A stretch of 32,000 nucleotides of DNA, taken from the NCBI RefSeq assembly GCF_000172995.2, contig NC_014732.1:1-32000 (forward strand), given 5' to 3'. The DNA is from Halogeometricum borinquense DSM 11551 (GTDB taxonomy: Archaea; Halobacteriota; Halobacteria; Halobacteriales; Haloferacaceae). The position numbers were made by a program, and so were the translations under genes. Positions 8,379 to 24,589 of this stretch are shown here, piece after piece. The notes under the pieces were generated by a model. That model did not search any database and was not told where the DNA came from. It worked only from the letters and a program-made list of their open reading frames with translations. Numbering within the stretch: the first letter of the stretch is position 1; each line of letters opens with the position of its first letter.

Positions 8379-8383
8379 GTCGA

Positions 8384-9166: not shown

Positions 9167-11038
9167 GTGTCTCCCTCACAGAGCCAACACGCTGACTCGA
9201 CGTCCCCACGCTGGACGAGAGTACTCCTCGTCGTCGGATTCCTCGGCCTTGCCGGTGGCGTCCTTACAGCACGGGCGGACCCTGCGACCGGATACGAAGT
9301 GTCAGTGTACGCGGCGACGCCGCCCGCATTCTGGGTCGGTATCATTGGCGCAGCAACCATCGGTACTGTCGTGGCACTGTTCGACCGCGATCTCGGTCGA
9401 ATCACCGGTGTCAGCCTCACAGGCCTGAGTACGGTATCGTTCCTCGCACTCCCGCTTTTCCGAGGATACTACTTCTTCGGGTCGGGCGACGCACTGACAC
9501 ATCTCGGCTGGGCAAAGCAGATGCTCGGTCCCGAGTTCGGATTCTTCGACCTCATCTATCCCGGCGGGCACTCACTCGGTGTGTTCCTCTCACAGACGAT
9601 GGGCGTCCCGGTCAGGTGGGGAATGATGTACGCGATGCTTACGATGTCGGTGCTGACGTTGCTTTTCGTCCCCTTGGCCGTGTGGGTAGTCGTGCGTGAC
9701 TCACGTGCGGTCATCATCGCGGCGTTCACGGCCATGCTGATGCTGCCGATCAACAACATCAGTACACACTCGCACTTCCACACGTACACGCTGACGACGC
9801 TGTACTTCCCGTTTGTTCTCTACTTACTGTTCAAGCATCTCACTCGTGACGCAGAAGACGTATCGCTTCCGAGTTGGACCGCAGCAACCAGCCTCGTCTT
9901 ACCAATCGCGCTGGCGGCGAACGTGTTCTATCATCCGCAGGTAGCGGTGAACGTCCTCATATTCATGGGAACCGTACTCGCGGTCGGTGTCGCGTGGCGC
10001 CGTCGCGTCCGTGTAACGCAGCCAGCGGCGGCGGACGGCGGGCAACGCCATCGACTGATACTCGGACAGGTCATCTTCCTCACGGTCCTCCTCGGGGTGT
10101 GGGCGACGCAGTACCAGCAGACGTTCACGCTGCTGAACAACGTCTACCTGTCCGCACAGGCGTTTCTGACGACTGGAACCGGTGCAGGACAGGTCGCCGC
10201 AGAGCGCGGGGGTTCAGCACAAGCAATCGGTGTCAGCCTCGTCGAACTGTTCGTCAAACTGTTCGCAGTCAACGCGCTGTACATCGCCTTGGCGGCCGGT
10301 TTGGTGGCCGCGCTAGTGTTCGGGATGATCCAGAATCGATCCGACAGCGACATGGCCGTGACCTACATCGGCTTCTCTGCGCTGACGCTCGGACCGTTTT
10401 TCGCCGTGCAGTTCATCGGCGACGTGTCAGGGTACTTCTTCCGGCACCTCGGATTCGCCATGGTTCTCGTCGGTATCGTCGGCGCAATCGCGCTCTATCA
10501 CCTCTCTGATACGCTCCAAGACACAATTAGAGGACGGAGGAAGGCTATCGTCGCGGTACTCACCGTGGCTGTGCTGTGTCTCTCGCTCGCAGCGTACTTC
10601 CCCTCGCCGTACATCTACAACCCCTCGCCGCAAAGCCCCGAACAGCAGTTCGTCGGCTACGACACCACCTTCGAACACCGGGCGGAAGGGGCCGCCGTGG
10701 CGGGCATTCGATCAGGTCCGGGGCGCTTCAGCGACGCACTGAACGACGACTTCGACCCCCGTCTGATGTGGACGCTGTCTGGAGAGCAGTTCAACAGTGC
10801 AGAGAACGTGACGCAGTTCAGGCAGTACTCGTATTCGGAGCAGCCGTTTTACTATCTCGTGGTATCCGAAAAAGACAAAGACCGCGAGTTGGACGCGTTT
10901 CGGTCGCTTCGATACCAAGAAGCAGACTTCGAACGCATCACGGACGGGGGCGAATCCGCGAATCTCACAGATCCACACGAACGGTGGGTTCGACGCCTAC
11001 TACGTCAATCAGCGCGGGAACTCACTGGAACCGCCTGA
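9167..11038 (+). CDS. Polytopic membrane protein (~13-14 TM) with ~160-aa C-terminal soluble domain; family unknown (candidate GT-C-type transferase or Wzy-like polymerase)
   Basis: 623-aa ORF with GTG start. Many hydrophobic segments read by eye, for example WTRVLLVVGFLGLAGGVLTA, WGMMYAMLTMSVLTLLFVPLAVWVVV and FAVNALYIALAAGLVAALVFGMI. Loop 'RGYYFFGSGDALTHLGW'. The hydrophilic C-terminus starts at ~'YFPSPYIYNPSPQ'. No WWDXG motif. Confidence 0.85.
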   Translation: MSPSQSQHADSTSPRWTRVLLVVGFLGLAGGVLTARADPATGYEVSVYAATPPAFWVGIIGAATIGTVVALFDRDLGRITGVSLTGLSTVSFLALPLFRGYYFFGSGDALTHLGWAKQMLGPEFGFFDLIYPGGHSLGVFLSQTMGVPVRWGMMYAMLTMSVLTLLFVPLAVWVVVRDSRAVIIAAFTAMLMLPINNISTHSHFHTYTLTTLYFPFVLYLLFKHLTRDAEDVSLPSWTAATSLVLPIALAANVFYHPQVAVNVLIFMGTVLAVGVAWRRRVRVTQPAAADGGQRHRLILGQVIFLTVLLGVWATQYQQTFTLLNNVYLSAQAFLTTGTGAGQVAAERGGSAQAIGVSLVELFVKLFAVNALYIALAAGLVAALVFGMIQNRSDSDMAVTYIGFSALTLGPFFAVQFIGDVSGYFFRHLGFAMVLVGIVGAIALYHLSDTLQDTIRGRRKAIVAVLTVAVLCLSLAAYFPSPYIYNPSPQSPEQQFVGYDTTFEHRAEGAAVAGIRSGPGRFSDALNDDFDPRLMWTLSGEQFNSAENVTQFRQYSYSEQPFYYLVVSEKDKDRELDAFRSLRYQEADFERITDGGESANLTDPHERWVRRLLRQSARELTGTA

Positions 11039-12476: not shown

Positions 12477-14072
12477 GTGAACGATACGTATGATGAAACT
12501 CGCCGAGCGTTCGTCTTGGGCCTCGACGGAGTTCCGTGGGGACTCCTCGAACGCCTCGTGGACGACGGCGAGTTACCGAACTTCGAACGCCTCCTGAACG
12601 AGGGAGCGTCGGGCCCGCTCCGGAGTACGGTTCCCGCGAACACGCCCGTCGCATGGCCCTCCATCGCAACGGGGACGTGGCCCGACAAGCACGGACTGTA
12701 CGAGTTCATGAAACTCAATGCCGCGTACAAGCAGTCGCCGTACTCCAGCGCGGACATCGATCAACCACCGCTCTGGGAACTCGTCTCTCCGTCGGTTGTC
12801 GCCAACGTCCCGATGACGTATCCGACGAGCGACCCCGGCGAAGACAGCGGCATCGTCAGCGGTATGATGACACCGCAGATAGATGGTGCGGCCGTCAATC
12901 CAGACTCGCTTCGCTCGGAATTCGACCGTCGGCTCCCGGATTACGAGATCGACATCAAATGGCGCGACTACGCGGGACGCAAAGCGGAGTTCCTTCGGGA
13001 TCTCGAAAACGTCCTCGACGGTCGTCGGCAGTTGATGGAGATGCTCATGGAGAACGAAGCGTGGCGACTGTTCTTCTTCGTCTACGTCGCTCCCGATAGA
13101 CTCCAGCACCTCATTTGGGACGAGGAAACGCTCCGTGAGCACTACGGGAAACTCGACGAAATCCTCGGTGACGTAATGGCGTACTGTGAGGAGCGCGATT
13201 CGAATCTCTACGTGGTCTCCGATCACGGCTTTGCGCCCATCGAGAAAGTCATCAGTGTCAACCGGATTCTCGCGGACGAAGGGCTGTTAACCGTCAAAGA
13301 CAGCGACGGGACGCGCGGTGCGCTATCGAGTATCGGGCTGAACAAAGCGCGCGTGCAGAGTGCGCTAAAGAGCGTCGGAATCACGGACGAAAAGCTAGTC
13401 CGGAGCCTGCCAAAGTCCGTTGTGGACTTCTTCGCAGAACGCATCCCCGGCAGTCACGGACTGTACGACGTGGAGTTCGACCGGACGGACGCCTTCCTCC
13501 ACGGCCTCGGAAGCGTCTACATCAACGACACCGAGCGATTCGAACAGGGGACCGTCCCGCCGACGGCCGTCGAACGGACGAAGTGCGAGGTCATAGGCGT
13601 TCTCGAAGCGGCGACGGACCCCGAAACGGGAGACTCACTGCTCACCGTCCACGACGGGGACGAACTGTTCCCAAATGATCCAGAAGCGCCGGATATCGTG
13701 GTCGAAGCAAAGGACGGCTATCACGTCGAACCGAAACTCGGAGAGCGCGCAGTCGAACCTGCGACGGATATCGCCGCGTACCATCGGCCGGAAGGCATTT
13801 TCTTCGCGTGGGGTGACGACGTTCGCTCCGGTGCGACAGTCGAAGACGCCGAGGTCGTGGACGTGGCACCGACAGTTCTCCACTCGCTCGGACAGGAGAT
13901 CCCCGAGATGGCGGATGGTCGAGTTCTCGCAGAGATGTTCCGGTCCGACTCCGAACCGGCGACGACCGCCGTCCAGACGGGGCGGTACGCGAAACGCGAG
14001 GGTGCAAAAGCAACGGAGACGGACACCGAGACGGTCGAGGACCGGCTTCGCGGACTCGGGTATATGGAGTGA
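12477..14072 (+). CDS. Alkaline-phosphatase-superfamily type I phosphodiesterase / nucleotide pyrophosphatase-like enzyme, cytoplasmic
   Basis: 'AFVLGLDGVPWGLL', 'STVPANTPVAWPSIATGTWPDKHG' (Thr nucleophile context as in NPP/PF01663) and 'VVSDHGF'. GTG start at 12477. No signal peptide. C-terminal tail 'VEDRLRGLGYME'. Confidence 0.85.
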   Translation: MNDTYDETRRAFVLGLDGVPWGLLERLVDDGELPNFERLLNEGASGPLRSTVPANTPVAWPSIATGTWPDKHGLYEFMKLNAAYKQSPYSSADIDQPPLWELVSPSVVANVPMTYPTSDPGEDSGIVSGMMTPQIDGAAVNPDSLRSEFDRRLPDYEIDIKWRDYAGRKAEFLRDLENVLDGRRQLMEMLMENEAWRLFFFVYVAPDRLQHLIWDEETLREHYGKLDEILGDVMAYCEERDSNLYVVSDHGFAPIEKVISVNRILADEGLLTVKDSDGTRGALSSIGLNKARVQSALKSVGITDEKLVRSLPKSVVDFFAERIPGSHGLYDVEFDRTDAFLHGLGSVYINDTERFEQGTVPPTAVERTKCEVIGVLEAATDPETGDSLLTVHDGDELFPNDPEAPDIVVEAKDGYHVEPKLGERAVEPATDIAAYHRPEGIFFAWGDDVRSGATVEDAEVVDVAPTVLHSLGQEIPEMADGRVLAEMFRSDSEPATTAVQTGRYAKREGAKATETDTETVEDRLRGLGYME

Positions 14073-14092
14073 CCCACCGGGATCGATGGCGA

Positions 14093-15691
14093 ATGACACG
14101 CGACGACAGTCGGACGTTCACGCGTCGTCGTCTCCTCGGTCTCCTCGGAAGTGCGGGCGTCGCCTCCCTCGCAGGATGCGGCGGGCGTGACACGACGCCG
14201 ACAGCAACCCCGGAGAAACCCGGTCCATTCAAGCAAACGTCGGACAGTCCCGATGAAAATCCGAGGATGCGGGACGGAATCGGGTTCGACCGCGTAGTGA
14301 ACGCGGTCGATGACCTCAGCTGGGATCCGAGCGGTGAAGAAGCGATAGACGACTCATTAGATCAGACTCTCCGCGAAGGGACGCTTATCGAAGTTCCGCC
14401 GGGCACGTACCGCGTCAAGCGGCGGCACGACGTCGAAGGCGTCTCCAGATGGGGAATCGTCGGAATCGGAACGAACCGGCGGGCCGTGCAGTTTACGCCT
14501 CCAACAGGCCGATCGTTCCGCTGGCTAATGGTCGATGGCGGGAGTGACATCCTCATCAAGAACTTCACCATGCAACAGGGTCGCAAGTTCGACCGGTCCA
14601 TCGGGATGGGTTTTCTCGTCGACGATGGACTCAAACTGTACAACGTCGAGAAGGCCGGATCGAACCCGCGGGAGAACTCCGGGTCCGGCGCGGAGAACGG
14701 TATCGTCGTTCAGGTAACGAAGCCCGACGGCGTCGCCGTCGTCGATACGTTTGTCCGCAAAGGACCGCAGGACTTCGCACACTACCCCGGTAACGCCATC
14801 ACCGTATTCACCGGCCGCGGGCACCTCGGGACAGTGTACTATCGAAACCTCCACATCGAGAACGGCGGCGAACACGGTATCTACGCCTCGAAAGGACAAG
14901 GAAACGTCCGCGTCGAAGGCGGGTTGTTCAAGAACAACCTCGGGGACGGCGTCCGAATCGCCGGAGAGGGATCATGGGTGAAAGGTGCCACCGTCGTCAT
15001 CGACATGGACGACCGGACTCCCGGAAACCGGGGGAACTGGCACCAAGCAAGAGGAATCCACCTACAGTCGGGCGAGTACGGTTACACCGGCGGACTGGTC
15101 GAAGACTGTACGGTTATTGCACACGCGTCGCCGCGGACAGAAGCCCTCCTAAAGATAGAACACAGCCAAGGAGCTGCGACAGTCAGAAATTGTCGCTTCT
15201 TCAATAATACGGATTACCGTACAATCGTCGTAGACAAGCCGGCGACAGGCCCCCAACAGCCGAAAAAGCCGTGGGAGGTGACGTTCGAGAACATCGAAAT
15301 ATCCGGTCGTGCGTCGAACACCGTTGCGATGCTTCTCGAAGACCGCCCCGGTTCGAAGATTTCGAACGTGACGATTGACCTACCGAGTGTCGGCGTAGAC
15401 GGAATCGTCCTCAACAACTGCGAAGGGACCGTCATCGACAACATGAACGTCGTCACAGGGGGCTATCCCCTGCGAGTGTCGAGTAACAGCGACGGAGAGC
15501 AGTGTCTCGTGACACTCAAAAACCTCCGTCGTCTCAAGTCGTCGCTGCTGTCCGACGCTGATACGGAACAACTCGCAAGTTCGCTCTCGGGGTCCACTTG
15601 TCTGGATGGGAACGACACAGCGAAGCAAACGTTCGCCGTGATCGGCGCAAACGACGACCGCCTCTACGGGACGGTTCTCGACGAGCAGTAA
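14093..15691 (+). CDS. Tat-exported lipoprotein with right-handed parallel beta-helix (pectate-lyase-3-like) domain; paralog of the next gene
   Basis: 'MTRDDSRTFTRRRLLGLLGSAGVASLAGCGG' is a twin-arginine signal plus lipobox. N-terminal motif 'FDRVVNAVDDLSWDPSGEEAIDDSL...GTLIEVPPGTYRV'. PbH1-like repeats (IKNFTM, YRNLHIENGGEHGIY, FKNNLGDGVRI, VEDCTVI, VRNCRFFNN, LNNCEGTVIDNMNV). An alternative GTG at 14069 overlaps the upstream stop (GTGA). Confidence 0.85.
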   Translation: MTRDDSRTFTRRRLLGLLGSAGVASLAGCGGRDTTPTATPEKPGPFKQTSDSPDENPRMRDGIGFDRVVNAVDDLSWDPSGEEAIDDSLDQTLREGTLIEVPPGTYRVKRRHDVEGVSRWGIVGIGTNRRAVQFTPPTGRSFRWLMVDGGSDILIKNFTMQQGRKFDRSIGMGFLVDDGLKLYNVEKAGSNPRENSGSGAENGIVVQVTKPDGVAVVDTFVRKGPQDFAHYPGNAITVFTGRGHLGTVYYRNLHIENGGEHGIYASKGQGNVRVEGGLFKNNLGDGVRIAGEGSWVKGATVVIDMDDRTPGNRGNWHQARGIHLQSGEYGYTGGLVEDCTVIAHASPRTEALLKIEHSQGAATVRNCRFFNNTDYRTIVVDKPATGPQQPKKPWEVTFENIEISGRASNTVAMLLEDRPGSKISNVTIDLPSVGVDGIVLNNCEGTVIDNMNVVTGGYPLRVSSNSDGEQCLVTLKNLRRLKSSLLSDADTEQLASSLSGSTCLDGNDTAKQTFAVIGANDDRLYGTVLDEQ

Positions 15692-15874
15692 GACGCCGAC
15701 CGAACCGACAATTACAGTCGGCATATCTCTTCTGATCTGCAGTTAATGCTTGATTAACGCATTTTCAGACCGTCTACGCACACACCGTGCTGTTTGTCAC
15801 ACTATGCCAAATGTGCCGGGAGAAGCCGGAACAGGTAAGTAAACGCTCCGTTAGAATCGGTTATGTAGATGAAA

Positions 15875-15895
15875 ATTAGATATTCAAGATCTAAT
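15875..15895. promoter_or_regulatory. Inverted repeat ATTAGAT-n7-ATCTAAT in the AT-rich upstream region; candidate regulator binding site
   Basis: The 7-bp arms (15875-15881 and 15889-15895) are perfect reverse complements. Located ~100 nt upstream of the ATG at 15983. Confidence 0.35.
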
Positions 15896-15954
15896 GAAAG
15901 TCGCTATATTTTTGGTATTATTCCTAACTAATACGCCATGGAATAATCGATGCA

Positions 15955-15962
15955 TTTAATAT
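15955..15962 (+). promoter_or_regulatory. TATA-like box TTTAATAT ~25 nt upstream of the ATG at 15983 (leaderless-type promoter)
   Basis: It lies in a ~140-nt stretch (15841-15980) that I count at 44/140 = 31% G+C, against visibly GC-rich flanking coding sequence. Confidence 0.45.
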
Positions 15963-15982
15963 CTTAAGCTGAGTCTAAACAG

Positions 15983-18577
15983 ATGTCCATGGCAGAACAA
16001 CCTGCAAACAGCCCGAACGACGCGGGCGCTGAAAACACTGAGAACCAATCTGACGACACAAAACTGCTCGGCCGCCGTGACGCCCTGAAACTAGGTGCTG
16101 CGACTGCTGCTGTCGCCGCCGGTGCGGGCGCTGCAACCACAACGGCTACCGCTGCAATCGAACGCGAAGGCGTAACGTTCGACCGCGTGGTGAACGCGGT
16201 CGATGACCTCGGAATGGATCCCAACGGAAACGACCGGATCGACAGCAAACTCGAAGACGCACTCAGTCCGGGCACGCTCATCGAGTTCCCCGCGGGGACG
16301 TACAAGATAGCGAGCAAGCAAGTCCTTGAAGACCGTACGGGCATCGTCGGTATCGCCGACGACCGCTCGAAAGTTCGGTTCGTTCCCCCGCAGGGGAAGG
16401 GCATGCGCTGGATCAACTTCGGTAACGTCGCCGGTGCGGTTCTGAAGAACTTCACCATCGACCGACTGGACGACTATGACACCACGGTCGGGATGGGCGG
16501 GAACATCAAGCGCAACTTCGTCCTGAAGAACGTCGAGTACGACGGCTGGACCCCGACGGGTCCGCAGATGTTCGCGGCGAACGTCACCGACTCCGACGGG
16601 ACGGCAGTCGTAGACGGTCTCTACCGGACTGGTCCGACAGAGTTCCAACACTACCCCAAATCCTCACTAGACATCTGGTCGGGTCGCGGCCACGAAGGCC
16701 ACATGGTGCTGCGGAACATCGAGATTCACAACGGCTCCGAATCCGGAATCTACACCGGAAAGGGGAACGGAACCTACCTCATCGAGGACGGATACTTCAA
16801 GAACGTCGTCCACACGGCAGTTCGCGCCGCCGGCCGCGACTCGACGGTCCGAAACTGTACCATCGTGATGGACACGGAAGACTGGGACCCCCGCAACGAG
16901 AAAGTCGAGTCCACCTACGACGACGGCGAACCCATCCAGCTCAACCGGGCAATCTGGGCGCAGACGAACGACAAGCAGTTCTCCGGTCCCGTCATCGAGG
17001 ACTGTGACATCATCATCAAAAACACCACTTCGACGGCGCTCGCCGGGATCTATGTCAACTTCGATACCGGCGGCGCAAAGATTCGCAACACACGTATCCA
17101 GTGTGACTCCGGTCACGTCATCCCCATCTACGGACAGAGCCCGACCAACGAGGCGGGCGAACCGATCGAGATGGAACTCGACGGCGTGAGCGTCACTGGG
17201 TCCGCGTGGGACAAGGCCGCGATGTACTTCGAGGACCGTCCCAACTCGGTCATCCGCAACTGCTGTATCCAATCATCGAACAACAACGACGGCGTCCTGC
17301 TCGACAACTGTGACGGATCGACCGTCGAGAACACGAACATCAACGTCGGCGGTCGGGCAACGACGTTCAAGAACGGGAGCGTCTCCACCTCGTCCATCAC
17401 GTCGAGCGACAGTTGTCCGCTCCCTTCCCTGCCGAGTTCGACGCCGAGCGACGGCACGCCCTCGACCGGGGACGGATCCGGCGGATCGGACGATTCATCG
17501 AGCTACGACCTCCCGTACCGCTTCAAAGTCGAGAGTACGGGCGGCGGCAAGACGGAGTTCACCGTCTCGACCAGCGGGACGATGAAGCCCGCCTCTGACG
17601 CCGAAGGCGTCGTCGAGAACAACACGGTTTCCGACAGAGTCGGCCCGGAATCCGGCGTCGATAGCTACCTGTACGAAGGCTACGTCACGGACTTCTCGGT
17701 GACCGGCGGCGAGCATGCAAACTACTACATCGAAACGTCCGACGGGTCGAAGTCGGTGCAGGTGTCACCCGAACTCCTCTCGGCGAACAGGTTCGTCGTC
17801 AAGAGTACCGGCGGCGGCGTGGCGTCGTACGACGTGACTGTTGACGGCGAAATCGTCCGCGGAGCGTGCGGACTTGAGGATACGGTTGACGGCCAAACGG
17901 CTTCCGGCCGCGTCGGTCCCGACTCCGGAATAGACGCGTTCCACTACACCGGGAGCATCACCGACCTTACGTTCGACGGTGCCGAGTACGCGACGGTCAC
18001 GGTCAACGGCAAGGAAATCGACCCGAACCAGTACGGTGAGGGCGATTCGACCAGCGACCTGCCGAACTCGCTCACCATTTCCGGAACGGGGACCAATTCG
18101 ACGTACACGGTCACTGTCTCCGAAGATATCGATGTCTCTCCGGACGAGACGGACGACATCTCGGGTAACATCTCGACGAAGAGTGCGGAAGGTGCCGTCA
18201 CCGATGGCGAGGATAAGTACGTCTACGCCGGTGAAATTACGGACTTCACGCTGAACGGGGACGCGAAAGTCTTCGTCAACGGGAACGAAGTTGACCCCGC
18301 GACGCTCGGCAGCAGCAGTCTGCCGAACACGCTCGTCGTCGATGGGACTGGCAGTGACGCCGCGGGAACCTACACGGTCTACGTCTCCGGCGACATCGAG
18401 GCTGCCCCCGACCTGACCGTCGCGGGTGAGAGCAACTCACTCGACAGCGTCGAGGACAAGGTGTTCGACGGGAAAATCGCCGGTGTCGTCAAGACTGGGA
18501 AGGACGGATACCGCTTCTCCGGCGACATCACGAAGATGGAAATCAACGGTGACGCGGTGGTGAACCTCGGGCAGTAA
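15983..18577 (+). CDS. Tat-secreted right-handed beta-helix protein with Ser/Thr/Pro linker and four C-terminal tandem modules; no membrane anchor
   Basis: 'LLGRRDALKLGAATAAVAAGAGA' is a Tat signal without a lipobox Cys. Residues ~61-465 are colinear with the upstream paralog (FDRVVNAVDDL, GTLIEFPAGTYKI, LKNFTI, GRGHEG, RNIEIHNGSESGIY, FKN, IEDCDII, FEDRPNS, LDNCDGSTVENTNINVGG). Linker at 17378-17515. Four repeats run to the C-terminus, which ends ...VVNLGQ. Confidence 0.9.
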   Translation: MSMAEQPANSPNDAGAENTENQSDDTKLLGRRDALKLGAATAAVAAGAGAATTTATAAIEREGVTFDRVVNAVDDLGMDPNGNDRIDSKLEDALSPGTLIEFPAGTYKIASKQVLEDRTGIVGIADDRSKVRFVPPQGKGMRWINFGNVAGAVLKNFTIDRLDDYDTTVGMGGNIKRNFVLKNVEYDGWTPTGPQMFAANVTDSDGTAVVDGLYRTGPTEFQHYPKSSLDIWSGRGHEGHMVLRNIEIHNGSESGIYTGKGNGTYLIEDGYFKNVVHTAVRAAGRDSTVRNCTIVMDTEDWDPRNEKVESTYDDGEPIQLNRAIWAQTNDKQFSGPVIEDCDIIIKNTTSTALAGIYVNFDTGGAKIRNTRIQCDSGHVIPIYGQSPTNEAGEPIEMELDGVSVTGSAWDKAAMYFEDRPNSVIRNCCIQSSNNNDGVLLDNCDGSTVENTNINVGGRATTFKNGSVSTSSITSSDSCPLPSLPSSTPSDGTPSTGDGSGGSDDSSSYDLPYRFKVESTGGGKTEFTVSTSGTMKPASDAEGVVENNTVSDRVGPESGVDSYLYEGYVTDFSVTGGEHANYYIETSDGSKSVQVSPELLSANRFVVKSTGGGVASYDVTVDGEIVRGACGLEDTVDGQTASGRVGPDSGIDAFHYTGSITDLTFDGAEYATVTVNGKEIDPNQYGEGDSTSDLPNSLTISGTGTNSTYTVTVSEDIDVSPDETDDISGNISTKSAEGAVTDGEDKYVYAGEITDFTLNGDAKVFVNGNEVDPATLGSSSLPNTLVVDGTGSDAAGTYTVYVSGDIEAAPDLTVAGESNSLDSVEDKVFDGKIAGVVKTGKDGYRFSGDITKMEINGDAVVNLGQ
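17516..18574 (+). repeat. Four tandem protein-domain repeats (~83-93 aa each) within the secreted beta-helix CDS
   Basis: Modules start at nt 17516, 17786, 18065 and 18326. The opening strand recurs as 'xRF/LxVxS/GTGG..Y.VTV'. The closing motif is 'G.D.Y.Y.G.ITDF/L.x.G', seen as YLYEGYVTDFSVTGG, FHYTGSITDLTFDGA, YVYAGEITDFTLNGD and YRFSGDITKMEINGD. Confidence 0.85.
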
Positions 18578-18691
18578 CACCGCAGCCACGGACACCTACG
18601 CCCTACCCGCGTCGAGTTCCCGCACTCAGTCGGGATGATACGACTGAACTGAGAAACACGTTCGACGCCCCTTCACTATTTTGCGGACGCG

Positions 18692-18937
18692 TTATTCCAT
18701 GTAGCCGAGCGATTTGAGGCGACTCTCGACCTCCCGTTCGTCAACCGATTCGTACTCGTCGTCGCTCGCGTCTTCGACGCGCGCGAGAACCTCTTCGAGG
18801 ACGTAGGCAACGTACTCGTCGGACGTATCGAAGTTCGACCGGGGAAGGCGGCCCTCGATTCGGTCAAGGATGTGGACGGGAAGCGAAACCTCGCGGGTGT
18901 CGCTCTCGGAAAGAGAATCGCTCGTGTTCGTGTTCAT
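18692..18937 (-). CDS. Small acidic protein with putative ribbon-helix-helix (CopG-like) N-terminal half and LGYME C-terminal tail
   Basis: 81 aa from the ATG at 18937 (the track ORF starts at an upstream TTG). 'REVSLPVHILDRIEGRL..SDEYVAYVLEEVLARV' fits a strand-helix-helix pattern. An acidic linker follows, then 'EVESRLKSLGYME'. Divergent from the sulfatase-like gene. Confidence 0.55.
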   Translation of the reverse strand: MNTNTSDSLSESDTREVSLPVHILDRIEGRLPRSNFDTSDEYVAYVLEEVLARVEDASDDEYESVDEREVESRLKSLGYME

Positions 18938-19109
18938 ACTGACCAATGTAGCCGTTCGTTGGAGAACAGCGCGGTTTGTTATAGACCGGCTACGGGTACC
19001 GCGACCGGCAAATCAGTCGAGCAGCGCAACGACACTCACGCCCGGTTGCCAGACGGCCATCACGGGTACACGCGGCATAACAAAACCCCGAAAGCGGGTA
19101 CTGCGATGC

Positions 19110-20345
19110 ATGACTGACATGCGTGATGTCGTCCTCGTCACTATCGACAGCTTCCGCACCGACCGGTGCGGTTTCCTCGGTAGTGACGACGGACTCACAC
19201 CGGCGATGGATCGCCTCGCCGCGGATGGCCTCGTCTTCGAGAACGCCGTCGCACCCGCCGGAGCGACGAGCGGATCCTCCTCGACGTTCTTCACCGGGCG
19301 CTACCCAATCGAGCGTTCGACTGCGGAAGACCGCAAAGCGGTGATGCGACAGAATCTGAAAGCCGGCCGAACGCTGCCCCAGCAGTTCAAAGATATGGGC
19401 TACCGAACTGCCGGATTCACCGCGAATCCGTGGACCTCACGGTTCTTCGGCTATGATGCCGGATTCGACCACTTCGAGGACTTCATGGACGGTGATCTGA
19501 CCAGCGACACCATCGAAAAAGGCGACCGCGGCGGGACCTTCTCAGACCTCACCAGTCAGTTGCTCAACTGGTGGCAGGGACAGGACATGTACATGTCGTG
19601 GGACGCCTACTACGACCAGATACTCGACTGGTTGGACGAAGCGCGGGAGGGCGACGAACCGTTCTTCCTGTGGATATTCTTGGTTGACGTTCACATGCCG
19701 TATCTCCCGCCGAAAGGCTATCGGTCCCAGTCCTCCGCCGCCGCCTACGCCGCCAACGCGTGGTTGTTCGGCGGCGCAAAGCAGAATACTCCGTTGTCGG
19801 GACTACTTCACGACCGACTGCTTCGGGCCTACGACGACACGGTTCGCTTTACCGACGAGTTCGTGGACCGAATCGCGCGAGCGGTAGACGACGACACCGC
19901 CCTCTGCGTTCACGCCGACCACGGCGAGTCGTTCGGCGAGCGCGATGGACACTACGGCCACGGCTCCCTCTACGAGGAGACAGTTCGCGTCCCGCTCTTC
20001 GTGGCTAACCACCCCCAAGACCGAATCAAGCGACCGTTTTCTCTCGCCGGATTGCCAGCTCTCCTGACCCGGTTGGGTCGCGGTGAGACGGTCGACGACT
20101 CTATCGCTCACCCCATCGTCACCAGTCGGAACAACGACGGCTGGCGCGTCGCCCACGGTGGGTCGTGGCGCTACACCCGCCGACCCGAAGGCGAATCGGT
20201 CGAGACAGCCGATGGCGACCCGATAGACGACGAGGAACTGTACGATATCGGACAGTCGGTGATAGACCACGAAATCGAGGCCGAAGAAGAGCGACGGCGT
20301 GTGATCGATGCCGCCGTCGAAGTAACCGAATCCGGGCCGCTCTGA
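19110..20345 (+). CDS. Sulfatase-family (alkaline phosphatase superfamily, PF00884-like) hydrolase/transferase lacking the formylglycine motif; cytoplasmic
   Basis: 'VVLVTIDSFRTDRCG', 'ATSGSSSTFFTGRYP' (Thr in place of the C/S-x-P-x-R Cys), 'FLWIFLVDVHMPY', 'VHADHGESFGE' and 'YEETVRVPLF'. Start is the ATG at 19110 (alternative at 19119). No signal peptide. Confidence 0.85.
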   Translation: MTDMRDVVLVTIDSFRTDRCGFLGSDDGLTPAMDRLAADGLVFENAVAPAGATSGSSSTFFTGRYPIERSTAEDRKAVMRQNLKAGRTLPQQFKDMGYRTAGFTANPWTSRFFGYDAGFDHFEDFMDGDLTSDTIEKGDRGGTFSDLTSQLLNWWQGQDMYMSWDAYYDQILDWLDEAREGDEPFFLWIFLVDVHMPYLPPKGYRSQSSAAAYAANAWLFGGAKQNTPLSGLLHDRLLRAYDDTVRFTDEFVDRIARAVDDDTALCVHADHGESFGERDGHYGHGSLYEETVRVPLFVANHPQDRIKRPFSLAGLPALLTRLGRGETVDDSIAHPIVTSRNNDGWRVAHGGSWRYTRRPEGESVETADGDPIDDEELYDIGQSVIDHEIEAEEERRRVIDAAVEVTESGPL

Positions 20346-20396
20346 GACAGACAGCCGAGACCTCAATGCTCCGGGAGTCGGCTTTCAAACGAATCC

Positions 20397-21395
20397 TCAA
20401 ACGTTCGTTTCGTTCGTGTCAGACCGGAACTTTGTCCGGCCTCGGAAGCGTTCGAGGAAACGCTTTACATGTTGTACGGCTTTGACGGCCCGTTCACCAC
20501 CGAGAGCGACTGCGAGAGCGGGGAACGACTCGGCTTGTGAGGGGTCGTATCGAATACTCCGGAGGAGGAACCGAACAGCGTCGCGGTACTGACCGTTCAC
20601 CAGCGCAGCATGGGCAAGCGAACGCGACTGCGCCGCGACGAGGGCCTTTTCGTGTCGTCTGCCGTACTTGCGGGCCAGCGGTCGGTGTTTCTCCAAGAAC
20701 AGCGGGTACGAAACGTCTCGTTTCTGTTCGTAGTTGTCGCTGATCTGGCCGTGCGAATCGACTCGACGGACGGCGAGGGGTTCCGTAACGGTCTCGAAAG
20801 CGCACACTTCCGAGACCCGCAGGTACCACTCACGGTCCTGCCAACTCGGAAATCGCGTATCTAACAGGCCGACCTCGTCAATGACGGACCGACGCACCAT
20901 CACGGAGGAGAACGGACAGAGCGGTGCGCCGCGGAACAATTCGTGCGTCACCCACCCGCGCGTCTCGGGAACGCGATAGTTCGTCGTCGTTCCGTCGTCG
21001 GCGACGTTTTCCTGTCCGGTGTAGACGAAGCCGACTTCGTCGCTCGCGTTCTCGAACGCCCGTACCTGTTTTTCGACCTTCCGAGGCCGCCAGTAGTCGT
21101 CGTCGTCGAGGAAAGCGACGAACTCGCCGCGTGAGGCTTCGATACCGGTGTTGCGCGCGGCGTTCGCACCACGATTGACCTCGTGTCGGACGACGTGGAC
21201 GCGGTGGAGACTGTCTGTCTCGGCGTCCGCAACGATGGGTTCGATTGGGTCCGGCGAACAGTCGTCAACGACGACGAGTTCGATGGGGGCGTACGTCTGG
21301 TCGTTGACGCTCTCGACCGCGGCGTCGAGATACTCGGGCCGCCCGTACGCCGGAACGACTACCGAAACCAAACCGGACTCCGTGTCGTGACTCAT
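20397..21395 (-). CDS. GT2-family glycosyltransferase
   Basis: 'VSVVVPAYGRPEYLDAAVESVNDQTY..IELVVVDDCSPD', 'NRGANAARNTGIEASRGEFVAFLDDDDYW'. Confidence 0.92.
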   Translation of the reverse strand: MSHDTESGLVSVVVPAYGRPEYLDAAVESVNDQTYAPIELVVVDDCSPDPIEPIVADAETDSLHRVHVVRHEVNRGANAARNTGIEASRGEFVAFLDDDDYWRPRKVEKQVRAFENASDEVGFVYTGQENVADDGTTTNYRVPETRGWVTHELFRGAPLCPFSSVMVRRSVIDEVGLLDTRFPSWQDREWYLRVSEVCAFETVTEPLAVRRVDSHGQISDNYEQKRDVSYPLFLEKHRPLARKYGRRHEKALVAAQSRSLAHAALVNGQYRDAVRFLLRSIRYDPSQAESFPALAVALGGERAVKAVQHVKRFLERFRGRTKFRSDTNETNV

Positions 21396-21581
21396 TGATG
21401 CCGAGTTTGCCTCACGGGGTCTTTGTTCACCGCTTACTAATTATCCGAACCCAGCGCCGAACACGACGAGACGGGCGTCGGTACGGCAGACAGAAGCGGG
21501 CATTACCGGCGGCATAACGATAGGTTCGGGACCGCTCTCGTAGAGACGTATGGAATCTCGCGTGCGTTCGGAGGGTCGGCG

Positions 21582-23096
21582 GTGAGCCGACTCCGTGCCC
21601 TTCTCCGTCGTCTCGTTCCCAGCGGTGGGACTGCAGAACGCGTCGTCAAGAGCGCCATCTGGGCGATGGGACAGAACGCGTTCGGTCGCGTCCTCCAGTT
21701 GGCGATGCTCGTCGTCCTCGCGCGTCTCATCGGCCCGACGCAGATCGGCCTCGTTGGGGTCGCACTACTCGCACTGAGCGGAATTAAGAAGTTCACAAAC
21801 GTCGGATTGGACGCCGCGCTCGTCCAAGACGAAAACGAGGACGTGGACGAACACCTGAACACGGTGTGGATACTCGAAATCGCTCGCGGGGCGATCATCT
21901 CGGGGCTGTTGGTCCTCGCCGCGCCGTTCATCGCACAGATCCTCGGGGACGGCAACATCCAGAGTACGACGACACTGATTCAAGTTATCGCCCTGTCCCC
22001 GCTCCTTCTGGGCTTCAAGAATCCGGGGATGGTCTACTTTCAGAAAAATCTCGACTTCCACAAACGGTTCGTCTACCGAGTCAGCGGCGACGTGGTACAG
22101 GTGATTGTTGCTATCGCGTGGGCACTCGTCAGCCCCACGGCGATGTCGTTAGTCGCGGGGTACGTCGCCGCCGACTTCCTTCGTCTCGTCCTGTCGTACC
22201 TCCTCCACGACTTCCGGCCGAACCTCAGCTTCAGCCGGGAGTCCGCAAACGAACTCATCAACTACGGCAAGTGGATAACCGGGTCGTCGATTCTCTACTT
22301 CCTCTACAGCGAGGGTGACGACGCTTTCGTCGGCGCGTTCATCGGAGCCGCACCGCTGGCGTTCTATCAGTACGCGTACCGCTTTTCGAACGCGCCCGCG
22401 ACCGAGCTGACGAGCGTCATCTCAAGCGTCATGTTTCCGGCGTTCTCGAAACTACAGGATGACACCGAACAACTTCGTAACACGTTCAAGAAAACGCTCC
22501 GCGTGAATGCGTTCATCTCAGCGCCCGTTGCTTTCGGAATCGCTGTCGTCGCGCCGGACTTCGTGATGGTTGCCCTCGGCGAGGAGTGGATGACGATGGT
22601 TCTTCCGATGCAGATACTCGCCATCTACGGGTTCCTTCGCGCTCTCGGGCAGACGTTCGGTCCCATCTGGAAGGCGCTCGGTCGGCCGGATTTACTCACG
22701 AAACTGGGTACGCTCCGTGTCATCCTCATCGCACTCACGATCTATCCGGTGACGGTAACGTGGGGGTACGGCATCGCTGGCACCGCCGCGGTCGTCACGG
22801 CAATCTACGTCTTCCCGATGATGCCAATCGACATCTATCTCACCGCGAAGATGCTCGAAATACACCCGTTCGAAACGGTGCGCGAAATCGGCTTCCCCGT
22901 GCTGGCGAGTGCGATCATGGCGGGAGTGGTCTGGTACATCAACTCGATTGTCCAACTGCCCGCCATCGCAGAGTTAGTCATCGGCATCGTCGTCGGCGCG
23001 GCCACCTACTTCATGGTGGTGGCTCTCCTCGAACGCCAGTTCCGCTGGGGCATCGGCCAGAACATTCAAGGAATCGTCGCAAACGCCCGTCGCTGA
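21582..23096 (+). CDS. Oligosaccharide/polysaccharide flippase (Wzx/RfbX-like, MOP superfamily)
   Basis: 504 aa with GTG start. Multi-TM protein with N-terminal 'KSAIWAMGQNAFGRVLQLAMLVVLARLIGPTQIGLVGVALL', typical of polysaccharide biosynthesis (Wzx) proteins. Confidence 0.88.
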   Translation: MSRLRALLRRLVPSGGTAERVVKSAIWAMGQNAFGRVLQLAMLVVLARLIGPTQIGLVGVALLALSGIKKFTNVGLDAALVQDENEDVDEHLNTVWILEIARGAIISGLLVLAAPFIAQILGDGNIQSTTTLIQVIALSPLLLGFKNPGMVYFQKNLDFHKRFVYRVSGDVVQVIVAIAWALVSPTAMSLVAGYVAADFLRLVLSYLLHDFRPNLSFSRESANELINYGKWITGSSILYFLYSEGDDAFVGAFIGAAPLAFYQYAYRFSNAPATELTSVISSVMFPAFSKLQDDTEQLRNTFKKTLRVNAFISAPVAFGIAVVAPDFVMVALGEEWMTMVLPMQILAIYGFLRALGQTFGPIWKALGRPDLLTKLGTLRVILIALTIYPVTVTWGYGIAGTAAVVTAIYVFPMMPIDIYLTAKMLEIHPFETVREIGFPVLASAIMAGVVWYINSIVQLPAIAELVIGIVVGAATYFMVVALLERQFRWGIGQNIQGIVANARR

Positions 23097-23194
23097 GACG
23101 GCGACAAGCATCGGCTAATCCGACACGTTCGAGAACCGTTCGAGGTTAGTCGCTGACGAATTAATGCACCGGAGTGTCACCCATTCAGTAGCAA

Positions 23195-24589
23195 ATGCCA
23201 CGCGATATCGTCTGGATAACACTCGAAAGCGTTCGGCAGGACCACACGTCGCTGGATGGATACCGCCGCGACACAACACCGTTTTTGCAGTCGTTGGCCG
23301 ACCGGTCGGATGGTGCGACGTTCAAACACTGCTTCTCGCACGACGTGTGGACTCGCGCGTCGAGTGCGTCGATCCTCACCGGGCTTGCATCATCGTCACA
23401 CCGGACGTGGACGCAGGAAAATCGGCTGTCGAGTGACGTCCCGACGATTCCCGAGGCGCTTCAACGAACCGACTACCGAACAGCCTGTGTCTCGCCGAAT
23501 CCGCAGTTAAGCGAGGTAACGGGTCTCGCCCGCGGATTCGACCACTTCCATTACCTAGGTAAGGACACCCTTCTCGACGAGGCGGGCGTTTTGACTGTCC
23601 TCGGCTACCTGACGAAACTCAACCAGCACTCCGCAGGCTACACGACGGACACCGCAAAGCACTCCGTCGGGTACGTTAGCGACGCCATCGCGCGGCGGCA
23701 CATCCGCGAGGCGGCGCAAGCAGACGAGGACCTGTTTCTCTACGTCCATCTCGGCGACAGCCACCACCCGTACTATCCGCCGAAGCCGTACCAAGACCTG
23801 TTTGCGGATGGATTCGAGATGTCCGTCGGCGAATCGCTCGACCTCGTGCTGGAGATGTCCTCGAATCTGCACGGCTATATCGCTCGCGGCGTTCCGTTCA
23901 CCAATGATGAGTGGAACGCCCTGCAGGCGATGTATGACGCGACCATCCGCTACGTGGACGACACGGTTCGGAGCATCGTCGAGTGCGCTGAAAACCGATT
24001 GAATGACCCCATCGTAGTCGTCACGTCCGACCACGGCGAACTGTTCGGCGAACAGGAGATGCTCGCACACATGGTCGTCGCCGACGACGCCGTCTCGCAC
24101 GTCCCCCTCGTCGTCTGTGGAATCGAGGCTGTCGAGAGCCACAACGGCGTCGTCCAACACGCCGACGCGATGAAGACGGTCCTCAACGAAGTCGGCGTCG
24201 AGTTCGAGGTACCCATCGGCTACGACCTCCGCGAACAGGACCGCGAGTTCGCCGTCACGCAACGCAGCGGCGTCCGGTGTGCGAGCAAACTCGACATGAT
24301 TGGAGAGCGAGACGACGCCTTCGACGCCTCGTCTTATCATGTGGGTGACCTAACGAGTCTTCGAACGCTCGACCACCGTTACCAGCAAAGTGAGTCCGGC
24401 GAGGACCTGTTCGCCGTTCCCGATGGGGTGAGCGACGTGAGCGAGGAGCGATCCGACGTGTGCGCCGAGTTAGCCCAGAAATGCGAATCGTGGCTCGACA
24501 GCTACGGCCTGCCGGAGTCCGAACGGGAAGAACAAGCCGAGTTCGACGATTCGATGACCTCGCACCTCGAAGACCTCGGGTATCTCTGA
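23195..24589 (+). CDS. Sulfatase-family (alkaline phosphatase superfamily) hydrolase/transferase lacking the formylglycine motif; cytoplasmic; LGYL C-terminal tail
   Basis: 'IVWITLESVRQDH', 'VWTRASSASILTGL' (Thr at the Cys position), 'LFLYVHLGDSHHPY' and 'VVTSDHGELFGE'. No signal peptide. Ends '...DDSMTSHLEDLGYL'. Confidence 0.85.
   Translation: MPRDIVWITLESVRQDHTSLDGYRRDTTPFLQSLADRSDGATFKHCFSHDVWTRASSASILTGLASSSHRTWTQENRLSSDVPTIPEALQRTDYRTACVSPNPQLSEVTGLARGFDHFHYLGKDTLLDEAGVLTVLGYLTKLNQHSAGYTTDTAKHSVGYVSDAIARRHIREAAQADEDLFLYVHLGDSHHPYYPPKPYQDLFADGFEMSVGESLDLVLEMSSNLHGYIARGVPFTNDEWNALQAMYDATIRYVDDTVRSIVECAENRLNDPIVVVTSDHGELFGEQEMLAHMVVADDAVSHVPLVVCGIEAVESHNGVVQHADAMKTVLNEVGVEFEVPIGYDLREQDREFAVTQRSGVRCASKLDMIGERDDAFDASSYHVGDLTSLRTLDHRYQQSESGEDLFAVPDGVSDVSEERSDVCAELAQKCESWLDSYGLPESEREEQAEFDDSMTSHLEDLGYL

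Follow-up and report, generated by a model that had tools for sequence, protein, structure and literature searches.

What does the same short peptide do at the very end of two large enzymes and of a protein of only 81 residues? The question is raised by the 32-kb window (the whole stretch of DNA that was analysed), in which a PF01663 phosphodiesterase, a PF00884 sulfatase-like enzyme (enzyme 2) and an 81-aa RHH-like protein end in ...ETVEDRLRGLGYME, ...DDSMTSHLEDLGYL and ...EVESRLKSLGYME*, respectively (Table 1).

The tail and its carriers in the window

Reading of the sequence confirmed the three near-identical C-termini of the original prediction, and also that sulfatase-like enzyme 1 lacks the tail. 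The coordinates given for the small-protein segment, 18695-18733, contain a slip: they span 13 residues and not the 15 that were quoted. A regex scan of the six-frame translation found L-x-x-L-G-Y four times in the window, and three of these occurrences sit 1-2 residues ahead of the stop in real ORFs. The internal background of the motif, measured on related loci, was 3.4e-5 per position. About 0.005 C-terminal motifs would be expected by chance among the ~28 genes of the window (an estimate from the internal rate), and the recurrence of the tail is far beyond chance. The three tail-coding stretches had just 11-14 of 21 nucleotides in common and differed in synonymous codons; therefore the tail is conserved as a peptide, and a DNA repeat or RNA element was ruled out as its origin.

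Table 1. Positions of the tail-bearing and related features in the window.
Feature	Position	Strand	Remark
NPP-type phosphodiesterase, PF01663	12477..14072	+	531 aa, no signal peptide, tail in cis
Variable linker, residues 489-519	13941..14033	+	between catalytic core and tail
Phosphodiesterase tail VEDRLRGLGYME	14034..14069	+	conservation and predicted helix
Small RHH-like tail protein	18692..18937	-	81 aa from ATG at 18937
Small-protein tail VESRLKSLGYME	18695..18730	-	most conserved family segment, in archaea and bacteria
Sulfatase-like enzyme 1, PF00884	19110..20345	+	tail-less, divergent from the small tail gene
Sulfatase-like enzyme 2, PF00884	23195..24589	+	464 aa, tail in cis
Sulfatase-like enzyme 2 tail SMTSHLEDLGYL	24551..24586	+	sequence, motif scan and homologues

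The consensus of the tail is h-[ST]-x-E-E-E-x-x-[VI]-x-x-R-L-[KR]-x-L-G-Y-h-[DE]-COOH. It is ~17-20 residues long, follows a flexible, variable and mostly acidic linker, and carries a net charge of -3 to -6 in haloarchaea. The Tyr was unchanged in 94 of 94 sequences and in 119 of 120 phosphodiesterase homologues, and Phe never substituted for it. This invariance, together with the family-specific x-x residues, suggests more than hydrophobic docking. A profile of the tail had no match at E≤10 among PDB sequences, and the databases and the literature on the motif yielded no family model, solved structure or publication that describes it.

The phosphodiesterase (12477-14069) matched PF01663 over residues 13-420 with E=2e-44 (Pfam), which places it in the alkaline-phosphatase (AP) superfamily as an NPP-type enzyme. 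Its AF2 model (pLDDT 89, core >90) was closest to solved NPP/ENPP folds, with E ~1e-16 and 14-16% identity. The linker was the most variable part of the PF01663 family alignment (entropy ~2-3 bits; pLDDT 50-73), and directly behind it V520, E521, R523, L524, G526, L527, G528 and Y529 were invariant or at least 96% conserved in 69 sequences. The tail was present in 119 of 120 homologues. AF2 predicted a detached helix at 514-526 and gave the last 30 residues a pLDDT of 50-59, so the tail is placed on its own enzyme without confidence. The hypervariable linker, the low pLDDT and the empty PDB profile search argue against the tail as an integral part of the fold; the earlier proposal of a portable short motif outside the AP fold was borne out.

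Both sulfatase-like enzymes belong to the sulfatase-type family PF00884 (Pfam), with E=1.6e-35 for enzyme 2 (23195-24586) and E=1.4e-41 for enzyme 1 (19110-20342). The three carriers had been described as otherwise unrelated, which needs correction, as the two enzymes share the AP superfamily. Over all loci the carriers are overwhelmingly AP-superfamily enzymes, with a dedicated family of small proteins and some APS kinases and CysD besides. Among the homologues of enzyme 2, 112 of 120 keep [QHR]L..LGY. At the formylglycine position enzyme 2 has Thr (WTRASSASILTG), neither Cys nor Ser; by sequence reading, the nucleophile regions are W-T-R-A-S-S-A-S-I-L-T-G in enzyme 2 and A-T-S-G-S-S-S-T-F-F-T-G in enzyme 1. 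The C/S-x-P-x-R signature ahead of ..LLTG is absent in both enzymes, with Thr instead and Pro and Arg missing, which excludes them from the formylglycine-dependent sulfatases. Their NCBIfam matches lean to phosphoethanolamine-transferase types (EptA-type).

The small gene (ORF 18692-18946, minus strand) has an alternative TTG start at 18946, which would give 84 aa. In its 19 homologues the tail residues R76-Y82 are invariant. AF2 predicted helices at 24-36, 42-60 and 70-80, and the family has its own conserved strand-helix-helix domain, which ruled out an enzyme fragment and upheld the view of a non-enzymatic protein that is no truncated AP enzyme. With the small protein itself, no Pfam or NCBIfam model reached threshold. 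Its relatives gave weak matches under the cutoff to RHH_1 (E=0.02) and, for a paralogue, to CopG_antitoxin (9e-5); a paralogue in DPANN (small-celled archaeal lineages) has an additional N-terminal segment with a sub-threshold CopG_antitoxin match. Fold similarity to RHH proteins (ParD, TCP) was weak (Foldseek E ~1), and a profile search of the PDB with the family found nothing. The small tail proteins are a family without an existing model. The divergent intergenic region 18947-19109 contains a repeated CGGGTAC and a paired TTTGTTAT/ATAACAAA; the CGGGTAC repeat is just partly kept in the closest relative.

Distribution and gene neighbourhood of the tail

The surroundings of 65 small-protein loci, 1.06 Mb in all, contained another 29 ORFs that end in the tail, where 0.57 would be expected. 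With so strong an enrichment, the refuting case named in the original prediction, a frequency no higher than chance, does not apply. Those of at least 150 aa belonged to PF01663, PF00884, a 311-aa AP-like family, CysD or CysC, with the sole exception of an unclassified 431-aa ORF in locus L065. A 32-column tail profile run against 1.84 billion representatives gave 36 matches at E≤0.001, mostly small proteins and PF01663 fragments, plus PG_binding_1 repeat proteins. So short a motif has little statistical power in a profile search, and DNA-pattern scans were therefore used.

The metagenome pattern was blind to protein family. It was restricted to CGN Arg codons, CTN Leu codons and [DE] as the last residue, and it therefore favours GC-rich organisms and misses ...GYL-stop. 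It gave at least 122 matches; among the matches listed, 120 run into a stop codon, and 114 form the end of a long ORF. The 70 ORFs of at least 150 aa among the matches listed gave Pfam hits to PF01663 (57), PF00884 (32) and APS kinase (2), and their remaining families were mostly AP-type (DUF229, Metalloenzyme, sulfatase C-terminal domains) or kinase-type, with no glycosyltransferase family. The other tail-ended ORFs listed were small RHH-like proteins. In a pattern scan of viral contigs, most of the matches (17 of 20) were due to chance. The tail occurs identically in bacteria and archaea, and about 6 of 43 tail-bearing enzymes are predicted to be secreted or lipoprotein-anchored. In haloarchaeal loci seeded on tail-bearing enzymes, tails were found on AP-type enzymes only, inside glycan clusters; the Haloferax loci examined are glycan clusters other than agl5-15.

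The genes of the small proteins adjoin tail-less PF01663 or PF00884 genes, or Sat, CysC or CysDN. An AP-superfamily or sulfate-activation gene lay within 300 bp at 44 of 63 loci and within 10 kb at 54 of 63. The metagenome matches listed replicated this: 23 of 27 small ORFs had an AP-superfamily or sulfate-activation gene no more than 3 kb away, in most cases at a distance of 25 bp or less. Some operons unite Sat, CysC and PF01663 with the small protein. This synteny points to sulfate activation. Tail-less orthologues of sulfatase-like enzyme 1 lie 0-240 bp from the small gene at no fewer than 10 haloarchaeal loci, which makes enzyme 1 a candidate user of the tail in trans.

Tails in cis and in trans are mutually exclusive. 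Beside a small gene 2 of 28 AP genes had the tail, versus 11 of 33 farther off (loci uncorrected for kinship). Among the metagenome matches listed, likewise uncorrected for kinship, none of 15 AP genes beside a small tail gene had the tail and none of 78 large tail-bearing ORFs had a small tail gene within 300 bp. This exclusivity points to the AP-type enzymes themselves as the functional partner of the tail. No AP-type gene was found within 10 kb of the Halanaerobiales loci (PHP-DUF218-Sat-CysC-small), so the AP domain cannot be the sole partner if these genomes do not have an AP gene at a more distant place. The window has neither Sat nor CysC, and the link to sulfate activation was absent from all the haloarchaeal loci examined, the window included. 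The secreted or lipoprotein carriers are a poor fit with a purely cytoplasmic sulfate-activation complex for PAPS (3'-phosphoadenosine 5'-phosphosulfate).

Possible roles of the tail

The explanation we propose, which we consider evenly balanced between right and wrong, is that the tail is a docking helix that AP-type enzymes require, in cis or in trans, within modules for sulfate activation and glycan modification. It would be a self-capped helix on a tether and an accessory element of AP-superfamily enzymes, with mostly cytoplasmic carriers: NPP-like PF01663, sulfatase-like PF00884 and a divergent form of ~311 aa. An AP-type enzyme either holds the tail in cis or adjoins the gene of an RHH-like small protein that would supply it in trans, and APS kinase and CysD are also carriers in some lineages. 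By our inference the helix binds to a site on the catalytic domain of AP-type enzymes, either the carrier's own or that of a partner protomer, and the window's own enzymes have a role in sulfation. Such docking may hold together or regulate the components of a module in which Sat or CysDN, and then CysC, would lead to activated sulfate and to surface-glycan modification. The small protein would be a stand-alone tail donor and probably a DNA-binding autoregulator too. In haloarchaea a membrane glycosylation complex, which the original prediction named among several partners, may be what the tail docks onto.

A tentative alternative, rather unlikely in our view, is that the invariant Tyr is chemically used, as a tethered acceptor, carrier or pseudosubstrate in the AP-type active site. 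It would be sulfated, adenylylated or phosphorylated, and sulfate might pass from PAPS through Tyr-O-sulfate to glycans, or the tail might act as an autoinhibitory plug. The strict exclusion of Phe fits this reading, and so do the long flexible linker that bears the tail, the operons that combine Sat, CysC, PF01663 and the small protein, and the supply to AP enzymes in cis or trans that is expected of a carrier or substrate. A crude motif scan of 1 Mb of neighbourhoods found only one candidate canonical sulfotransferase, and the Thr nucleophile and EptA-type NCBIfam matches of the window enzymes resemble transferases of the AP superfamily. CysD, which shares a fold family with PAPS reductase, ends in GY[FM], and PAPS reductase, with its ECGLH tail that swings at the C-terminus, offers a likeness. 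Against all this, L-G-Y is equally a plain Schellman helix cap, the pattern also occurs in PG_binding_1 domains, and the tail is also found on CysC and on putatively secreted enzymes. The specific version in which the Tyr is a covalent sulfuryl or adenylyl carrier, and the small RHH-like protein a free-standing carrier subunit, is decidedly unlikely; in this version APS or PAPS would charge the Tyr, AP-superfamily transferases with a Thr nucleophile would discharge it, and the tail would work as a protein-tethered aryl-sulfate shuttle.

It is also unlikely that the small protein is primarily an RHH transcription regulator of sulfate-activation and glycan genes, with its tail as an enzyme-binding sensor like that of antitoxins such as ParD or RelB. 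The enzymes' own tails would then compete for the site of the sensor and give feedback control. The strand-helix-helix architecture, the basic N-terminal strands in non-halophiles (KVTIKIPR) and the position of the small gene divergent from sulfatase-like enzyme 1 in haloarchaea are in line with a regulator, and source annotations name the protein a CopG or Arc/MetJ regulator. The RHH_1, CopG and ParD-like matches, that of the DPANN paralogue included, point the same way, but every RHH match was below threshold. The small gene is often the last of its operon or translationally coupled (gaps of 0-25 bp), which fits a subunit better, and a regulator would leave unexplained the enzyme tails where no small gene is nearby.

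We regard as very unlikely an amphipathic membrane-targeting helix of the MinD/FtsA type that brings soluble enzymes to lipid-linked glycans. The tail has an amphipathic pattern, the enzyme genes cluster with flippases and glycosyltransferases, and dolichol-phosphate-linked hexose is sulfated at the membrane (PMC3892788). However, membrane-targeting helices keep amphipathicity only, while R, L, L, G and Y of the tail are invariant across domains of life, and the exclusivity of cis and trans supply with a small RHH-like protein would be unexpected. Haloarchaeal membranes are strongly anionic and would repel tails as acidic as the haloarchaeal ones. A degron or docking motif for a general machine (proteasome/PAN in an HbYX-like manner, chaperone or tail-specific protease), as the original prediction had partly considered, is extremely improbable: the peptide is exposed, conserved and has its Tyr close to the carboxylate, but nothing points to a chaperone or degradation machine, the tails do not conform to the HbYX or PIP-box definitions, the carriers are confined to a few functionally linked families instead of a broad clientele, and bacteria and archaea share the identical tail despite different proteolytic machines.

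Sulfated glycans occur in haloarchaea and Thermoplasma, and the enzymes responsible for the sulfation are uncharacterised (PMC11625862, PMC3892788). Archaeal surface glycoproteins are known to bear such glycans; according to a 2024 review, the candidate archaeal sulfotransferases are still uncharacterised (PMC11625862), and Haloferax Agl7 (HVO_2046) is said merely to 'contribute to' sulfation (PMC3892788). The ending ...RL..LGY[LMIV][DE]-stop gives a sequence handle for a coherent and widespread protein set, made up of AP-type enzymes with the tail, those without it that pair with a small donor, and the Sat, CysC and CysDN of shared operons. With this handle the loose label 'sulfatase-like' becomes a two-component hypothesis that can be tested. 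Even as a docking helix and nothing more, the tail would be a new case of a pathway-specific C-terminal motif, interchangeable in cis and trans; if the Tyr were a carrier, the system would be a novel sulfotransferase system that could explain how surface glycans of archaea and of some bacteria are sulfated.

Comparison with known motifs and systems

The first helix of PG_binding_1, V..LQ.RL..LGY, has nearly the same pattern as the tail and was matched in proteins with 5-7 repeats. There the pattern opens a three-helix domain of ~60 residues in secreted proteins, whereas the tail-bearing proteins end 1-3 residues after the Tyr, or 0-4 residues past it in the membership comparison. Pfam reports no PG_binding_1 domain (PF01471) in the window proteins, and the resemblance is most likely convergent. 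The PG_binding_1 pattern indicates that h..RL..LGY is a helix with a Schellman-type cap. Two terminal or docking motifs were compared and rejected. The endings G-Y-M-E, G-Y-M-E and L-G-Y-L do not correspond to HbYX (hydrophobic-Tyr-X end), with the Tyr third from last in two of three and preceded by Gly in the other, and the tails have no in-register Gln or aromatic pair of a PIP box, Q-x-x-[LIM]-x-x-[FY]-[FY].

C-terminal docking peptides on acidic or disordered linkers are portable in bacterial SSB-Ct, the aP1 tail of the archaeal ribosomal stalk, the EEVD of Hsp70/90 and proteasomal HbYX. These hub-binding tails have another sequence, and the tail studied here sits on one enzyme superfamily and a small donor, in cis or in trans. 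MIM1 of ESCRT-III, (D/E)xxLxxRLxxL(K/R), is a C-terminal amphipathic helix as well. Its register is like E..h..RL..L of the tail, but MIM1 ends in K/R where the tail has G-Y-h, and the pathway is unrelated.

The C-terminus of CysD (PDB 1ZUN, ...SMEEKKRQGYF) is likewise terminal, has a G-Y-hydrophobic end and belongs to the sulfate-activation pathway; the DPANN CysD tail, ...MQKLRALGYM, can be matched to it position by position. In bacterial CysD both leucines and the arginine of the tail are missing, and the tail studied here is mostly found on AP-superfamily enzymes instead. Pfam detected no CysD domain in the three tail-bearing window proteins, and the CysD-type ending was seen only in the DPANN CysD of related loci. 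The small protein is like ParD, RelB and CopG/Arc/MetJ in its predicted strand-helix-helix N-domain, linker and C-terminal helix, and its gene is often coupled to that of its likely partner enzyme. It differs from these RHH antitoxins and regulators in that its partner would be of the AP type and not a toxin, and in that its tail is also fused to enzymes.

C-terminal tails in the surface-glycan island

The window is a surface-glycan biosynthesis island of Halogeometricum borinquense or a close relative, with best database matches at 96-100% identity. Its genes encode glycosyltransferases of the GT2 and GT4 families, a flippase of the Wzx type, a methyltransferase, a deacetylase, and two beta-helix proteins with Tat signals. 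The original prediction claimed that three proteins end almost identically in an L-x-x-L-G-Y tail and that sulfatase-like enzyme 1 lacks it; all three C-termini were present as quoted, and the absence was confirmed. A six-frame translation of the whole window gave just four occurrences of L..LGY, three of which lie one or two residues ahead of the stop of a real gene. The tail-coding DNA of the three genes has 11-14 of 21 bases in common and its synonymous codons differ, so the conservation is at the peptide level and a DNA repeat is ruled out as the origin of the tails.

Tail-bearing genes and other features of the window
Feature	Position	Strand	Description
PF01663 phosphodiesterase	12477-14072	+	C-terminus VEDRLRGLGYME
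Small (81-aa) RHH-like protein	18692-18937/18946	-	C-terminus VESRLKSLGYME
PF00884 sulfatase-like enzyme 2	23195-24589	+	C-terminus TSHLEDLGYL
PF00884 sulfatase-like enzyme 1	19110-20345		Without tail
First beta-helix protein	14069-15691		Tat-type RR N-terminus and lipobox; gene overlaps the phosphodiesterase stop by 4 bp (GTGA)
Second beta-helix protein	15983-18577		Tat-type RR N-terminus
Low-GC stretch	15001-16000		GC 0.52 vs ~0.60 elsewhere; takes in the end of the first beta-helix gene and the gap between the two genes
Polytopic membrane protein	9167-11038		623 aa, without Pfam match
Divergent intergenic region	18947-19109		Between the small gene and sulfatase-like 1; three CGGGTAC copies and the inverted pair TTTGTTAT/ATAACAAA

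The two beta-helix proteins are paralogues (37% identity), and clusters of Halorubrum, Halomarina, and Haloferax (L066, L068, L069, L073; L numbers denote the other loci examined) have homologues of them beside tail-bearing enzymes. Homologues of the polytopic membrane protein (29-36% identity over ~590 aa) occur in five haloarchaeal loci seeded on tail-bearing enzymes and in L001 and L015; in some cases, such as L069 (8115-10004), they show translational coupling to the tail enzyme. This protein may be a partner at the membrane, or a glycan transferase or polymerase that has gone unrecognised. Orthologous counterparts of the divergent intergenic region in other haloarchaea retain the inverted pair, which probably represents the two TATA-like boxes; in H. 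limi the CGGGTAC copies are conserved only in part.

The small protein consists of a conserved strand-helix-helix domain of its own, a linker, and the tail, and the tail is the best conserved segment of the family. It is not an enzyme fragment, an outcome that would have told against the original prediction. The domain reads ..TIKIPR.LY...I..TGF.SV.EFIVYVLRD.. in bacteria and ..VSLP..I..R...RLPRT.F....EYVAYVLEEVL.. in haloarchaea, and AlphaFold2 predicted helices at residues 24-36, 42-60, and 70-80. Similarity to RHH proteins was weak and sub-threshold throughout, and no Pfam or NCBIfam model covers the family. DPANN paralogues of 107-109 aa (L035, 6647-6976; L039, 6896-7225; L041, 4581-4904) have, before the family domain and tail, an additional N-terminal segment that matches CopG_antitoxin below threshold (E=9e-5), and lie directly upstream of a tail-bearing CysD.

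On the enzymes the tail behaves as a separate module. In 69 aligned phosphodiesterase homologues, residues 489-519 were the most variable stretch of the protein (entropy ~3 bits), and V520, E521, R523, L524, G526, L527, G528, and Y529 were invariant or nearly so. RL[RK]GLGY was kept in 119 of the 120 best phosphodiesterase homologues and [QHR]L..LGY in 112 of the 120 best homologues of sulfatase-like 2, including Halobacterium salinarum and Haloferax proteins. AlphaFold2 modelled the phosphodiesterase core confidently (mean pLDDT 89) and placed a detached helix at 514-526 within the last 30 residues (pLDDT 50-59). The closest solved folds are NPP/ENPP enzymes (~380 residues), and a tail profile gave no match among PDB sequences at E≤10. 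The variable linker, the detached low-pLDDT helix, and the lack of a PDB match count against a tail integral to the alkaline-phosphatase (AP) fold, and the proposal that it lies outside this fold stands.

Carriers of the tail and their neighbourhoods

Seeded on the small protein, a search through 185,579 species genomes gave 65 loci, from haloarchaea, Thermoplasmata, DPANN, and Methanosarcinales among archaea and from Patescibacteria, Halanaerobiales, Actinomycetes, Planctomycetia, and Omnitrophota among bacteria. The 1.06 Mb flanking these loci held 29 further tail-ending ORFs (0.57 expected). Those of at least 150 aa were all PF01663, PF00884, ~311-aa AP-like, CysD-type ATP sulfurylase, or APS kinase proteins, except for an unclassified 431-aa ORF in L065. 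The ~311-aa family with an SDHG motif (L069, 18855-19790; L072, 8912-9844; L073, 20406-21341; L008, 17863-18822; L033, 14522-15448) matches PF00884 below threshold (E=0.001) and also ends in a tail (..TERLKNLGYVE). Its members are divergent AP-like enzymes that lack annotation.

A DNA-pattern scan of metagenome contigs for R-L-x-x-L-G-Y-h-[DE]-stop, meant to remove the bias of small-protein seeding, gave at least 120 loci. Of the 122 matches listed, all but two have a stop codon at their end, and 114 lie at the end of a long ORF. Enrichment beyond chance, whose absence would have told against the original prediction, is clear. The 70 ORFs of at least 150 aa among these listed matches gave PF01663 (57), PF00884 (32, overlapping), and APS kinase (2); their remaining Pfam families were mostly AP-type (DUF229, Metalloenzyme, sulfatase C-terminal domains) or kinase-type, and none was a glycosyltransferase family. 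The other large class among the matches listed comprised 27 complete small proteins of the same RHH-like-plus-tail design. The motif is thus portable, as originally proposed, but its carriers are not otherwise unrelated, being restricted to a few families. The same approach on viral contigs gave 20 matches, 17 of which look like chance. A genuine phage contig (L088, with prohead protease and major capsid protein) encodes the one carrier found outside the usual families, a 167-aa CxxC-rich protein (8086-8589) ending ..EEEVEKTMERLRALGYIE that adjoins sugar-nucleotide genes.

With gene families labelled by Pfam scans of cluster representatives, an AP-superfamily or sulfate-activation gene was found within 300 bp of the small gene in 44 of 63 loci and within 10 kb in 54 of 63. 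The Thermoplasmata operon is small gene - PF01663 (tail-less) - CysC, and the DPANN operon is small paralogue - CysD (tail) - CysN - short PF01663 - small gene. Halanaerobiales show the fixed order PHP - DUF218 - Sat - CysC - small gene - DUF1232 (L045, L052, L055, L057-L062); in two of their loci (L050, L062) the APS kinase itself has gained a tail. In the independent metagenome sample, 23 of the 27 small genes listed lie within 3 kb of PF01663, Sat, CysC, CysD, or CysN, usually at 25 bp or less. In haloarchaea the small gene is transcribed divergently from a tail-less sulfatase-like gene. Neither Sat nor CysC was found in the window or in any haloarchaeal locus examined, and for the window itself the link to sulfate is extrapolated.

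Supply of the tail in cis or in trans

The best pointer to function is an either-or pattern: the tail comes in cis, on the enzyme, or in trans, on the small protein, and not both. AP-type genes had their own tail in 2 of 28 cases beside a small gene vs 11 of 33 further off (p=0.026, locus kinship ignored). Among the metagenome matches listed, none of 15 AP-type genes adjoining a small tail gene was tailed, and none of 78 large tail-bearing ORFs had a small tail gene within 300 bp. The gap from the end of a tail-less enzyme gene to the start of the small gene is typically 0-25 bp. Haloarchaeal glycan clusters seeded on tail-bearing enzymes contained 1-3 tailed AP-type enzymes each, with no other gene tailed and no small gene within 10 kb. 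An AP-type enzyme appears to need a tail, either built in or from a small protein dedicated to this. Two of the window's enzymes, the phosphodiesterase and sulfatase-like 2, are cis cases; sulfatase-like 1 adjoins the small gene and is the candidate for supply in trans. Tail-less sulfatase-like enzymes beside a small gene (sulfatase-like 1; cluster-2 members in L003-L016 and L056) have in common a conserved C-terminal motif of a different kind, approximately E-[RK]-x-R-[IV]-x-x-A-A-x-x-[VL]. It is a C-terminal helix of a second type, which might pair with the small protein.

Possible roles of the tail and known systems

On the best-supported reading, to which we give an even chance, AP-type enzymes have a site that binds the tail as a tethered helical ligand. 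Such binding would serve to assemble or regulate a module with ties to sulfate activation and glycan modification, with the small protein as a free-standing tail donor and probably an RHH-type regulator as well. Against this reading, no AP-type gene lies within 10 kb in the Halanaerobiales operons, about 6 of 43 carriers appear to be secreted or anchored as lipoproteins, and phenylalanine in no case takes the place of the tail tyrosine.

This last point hints at chemistry or a specific hydrogen bond, and feeds the main rival, which we consider unlikely: that the tyrosine serves as an acceptor of sulfuryl or adenylyl groups, as a carrier, or as a pseudosubstrate. Both PF00884 enzymes of the window have threonine at the formylglycine Cys/Ser position, and canonical sulfotransferases were almost absent from small-protein neighbourhoods in a crude motif scan. 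The enzymes sulfating archaeal glycans are also still uncharacterised (PMC11625862, PMC3892788); if true, this rival would mean a new kind of sulfotransferase system. A small protein that is a regulator only, a membrane-targeting tail, and a degron or HbYX tail are each less likely.

In the wider sample the extended consensus, h-[ST]-x-E-E-E-x-x-[VI]-x-x-R-L-[KR]-x-L-G-Y-h-[DE], can be read as a single helix that starts with an N-cap box and ends in a Schellman-type C-cap. The PG_binding_1 domain opens with the same h..RL..LGY pattern, and repeat proteins were matched by the tail profile; two secreted proteins (P0140, P0154) with 5-7 PG_binding_1 repeats have V..LQ.RL..LGY as helix 1 of the domain. 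The tail may be structurally equivalent to this capped helix, and the resemblance is taken as convergent. The C-terminus of the solved bacterial CysD 1ZUN (..MEEKKRQGYF) aligns with the DPANN CysD tail (..MQKLRALGYM). No description of the tail motif or the small-protein family was found in Pfam, NCBIfam, solved structures, or the literature searched. Conserved C-terminal docking tails are an already known kind of device; what is new here is the sequence of the tail, its confinement to proteins of the AP superfamily and of sulfate activation, and the interchangeability of cis and trans supply.
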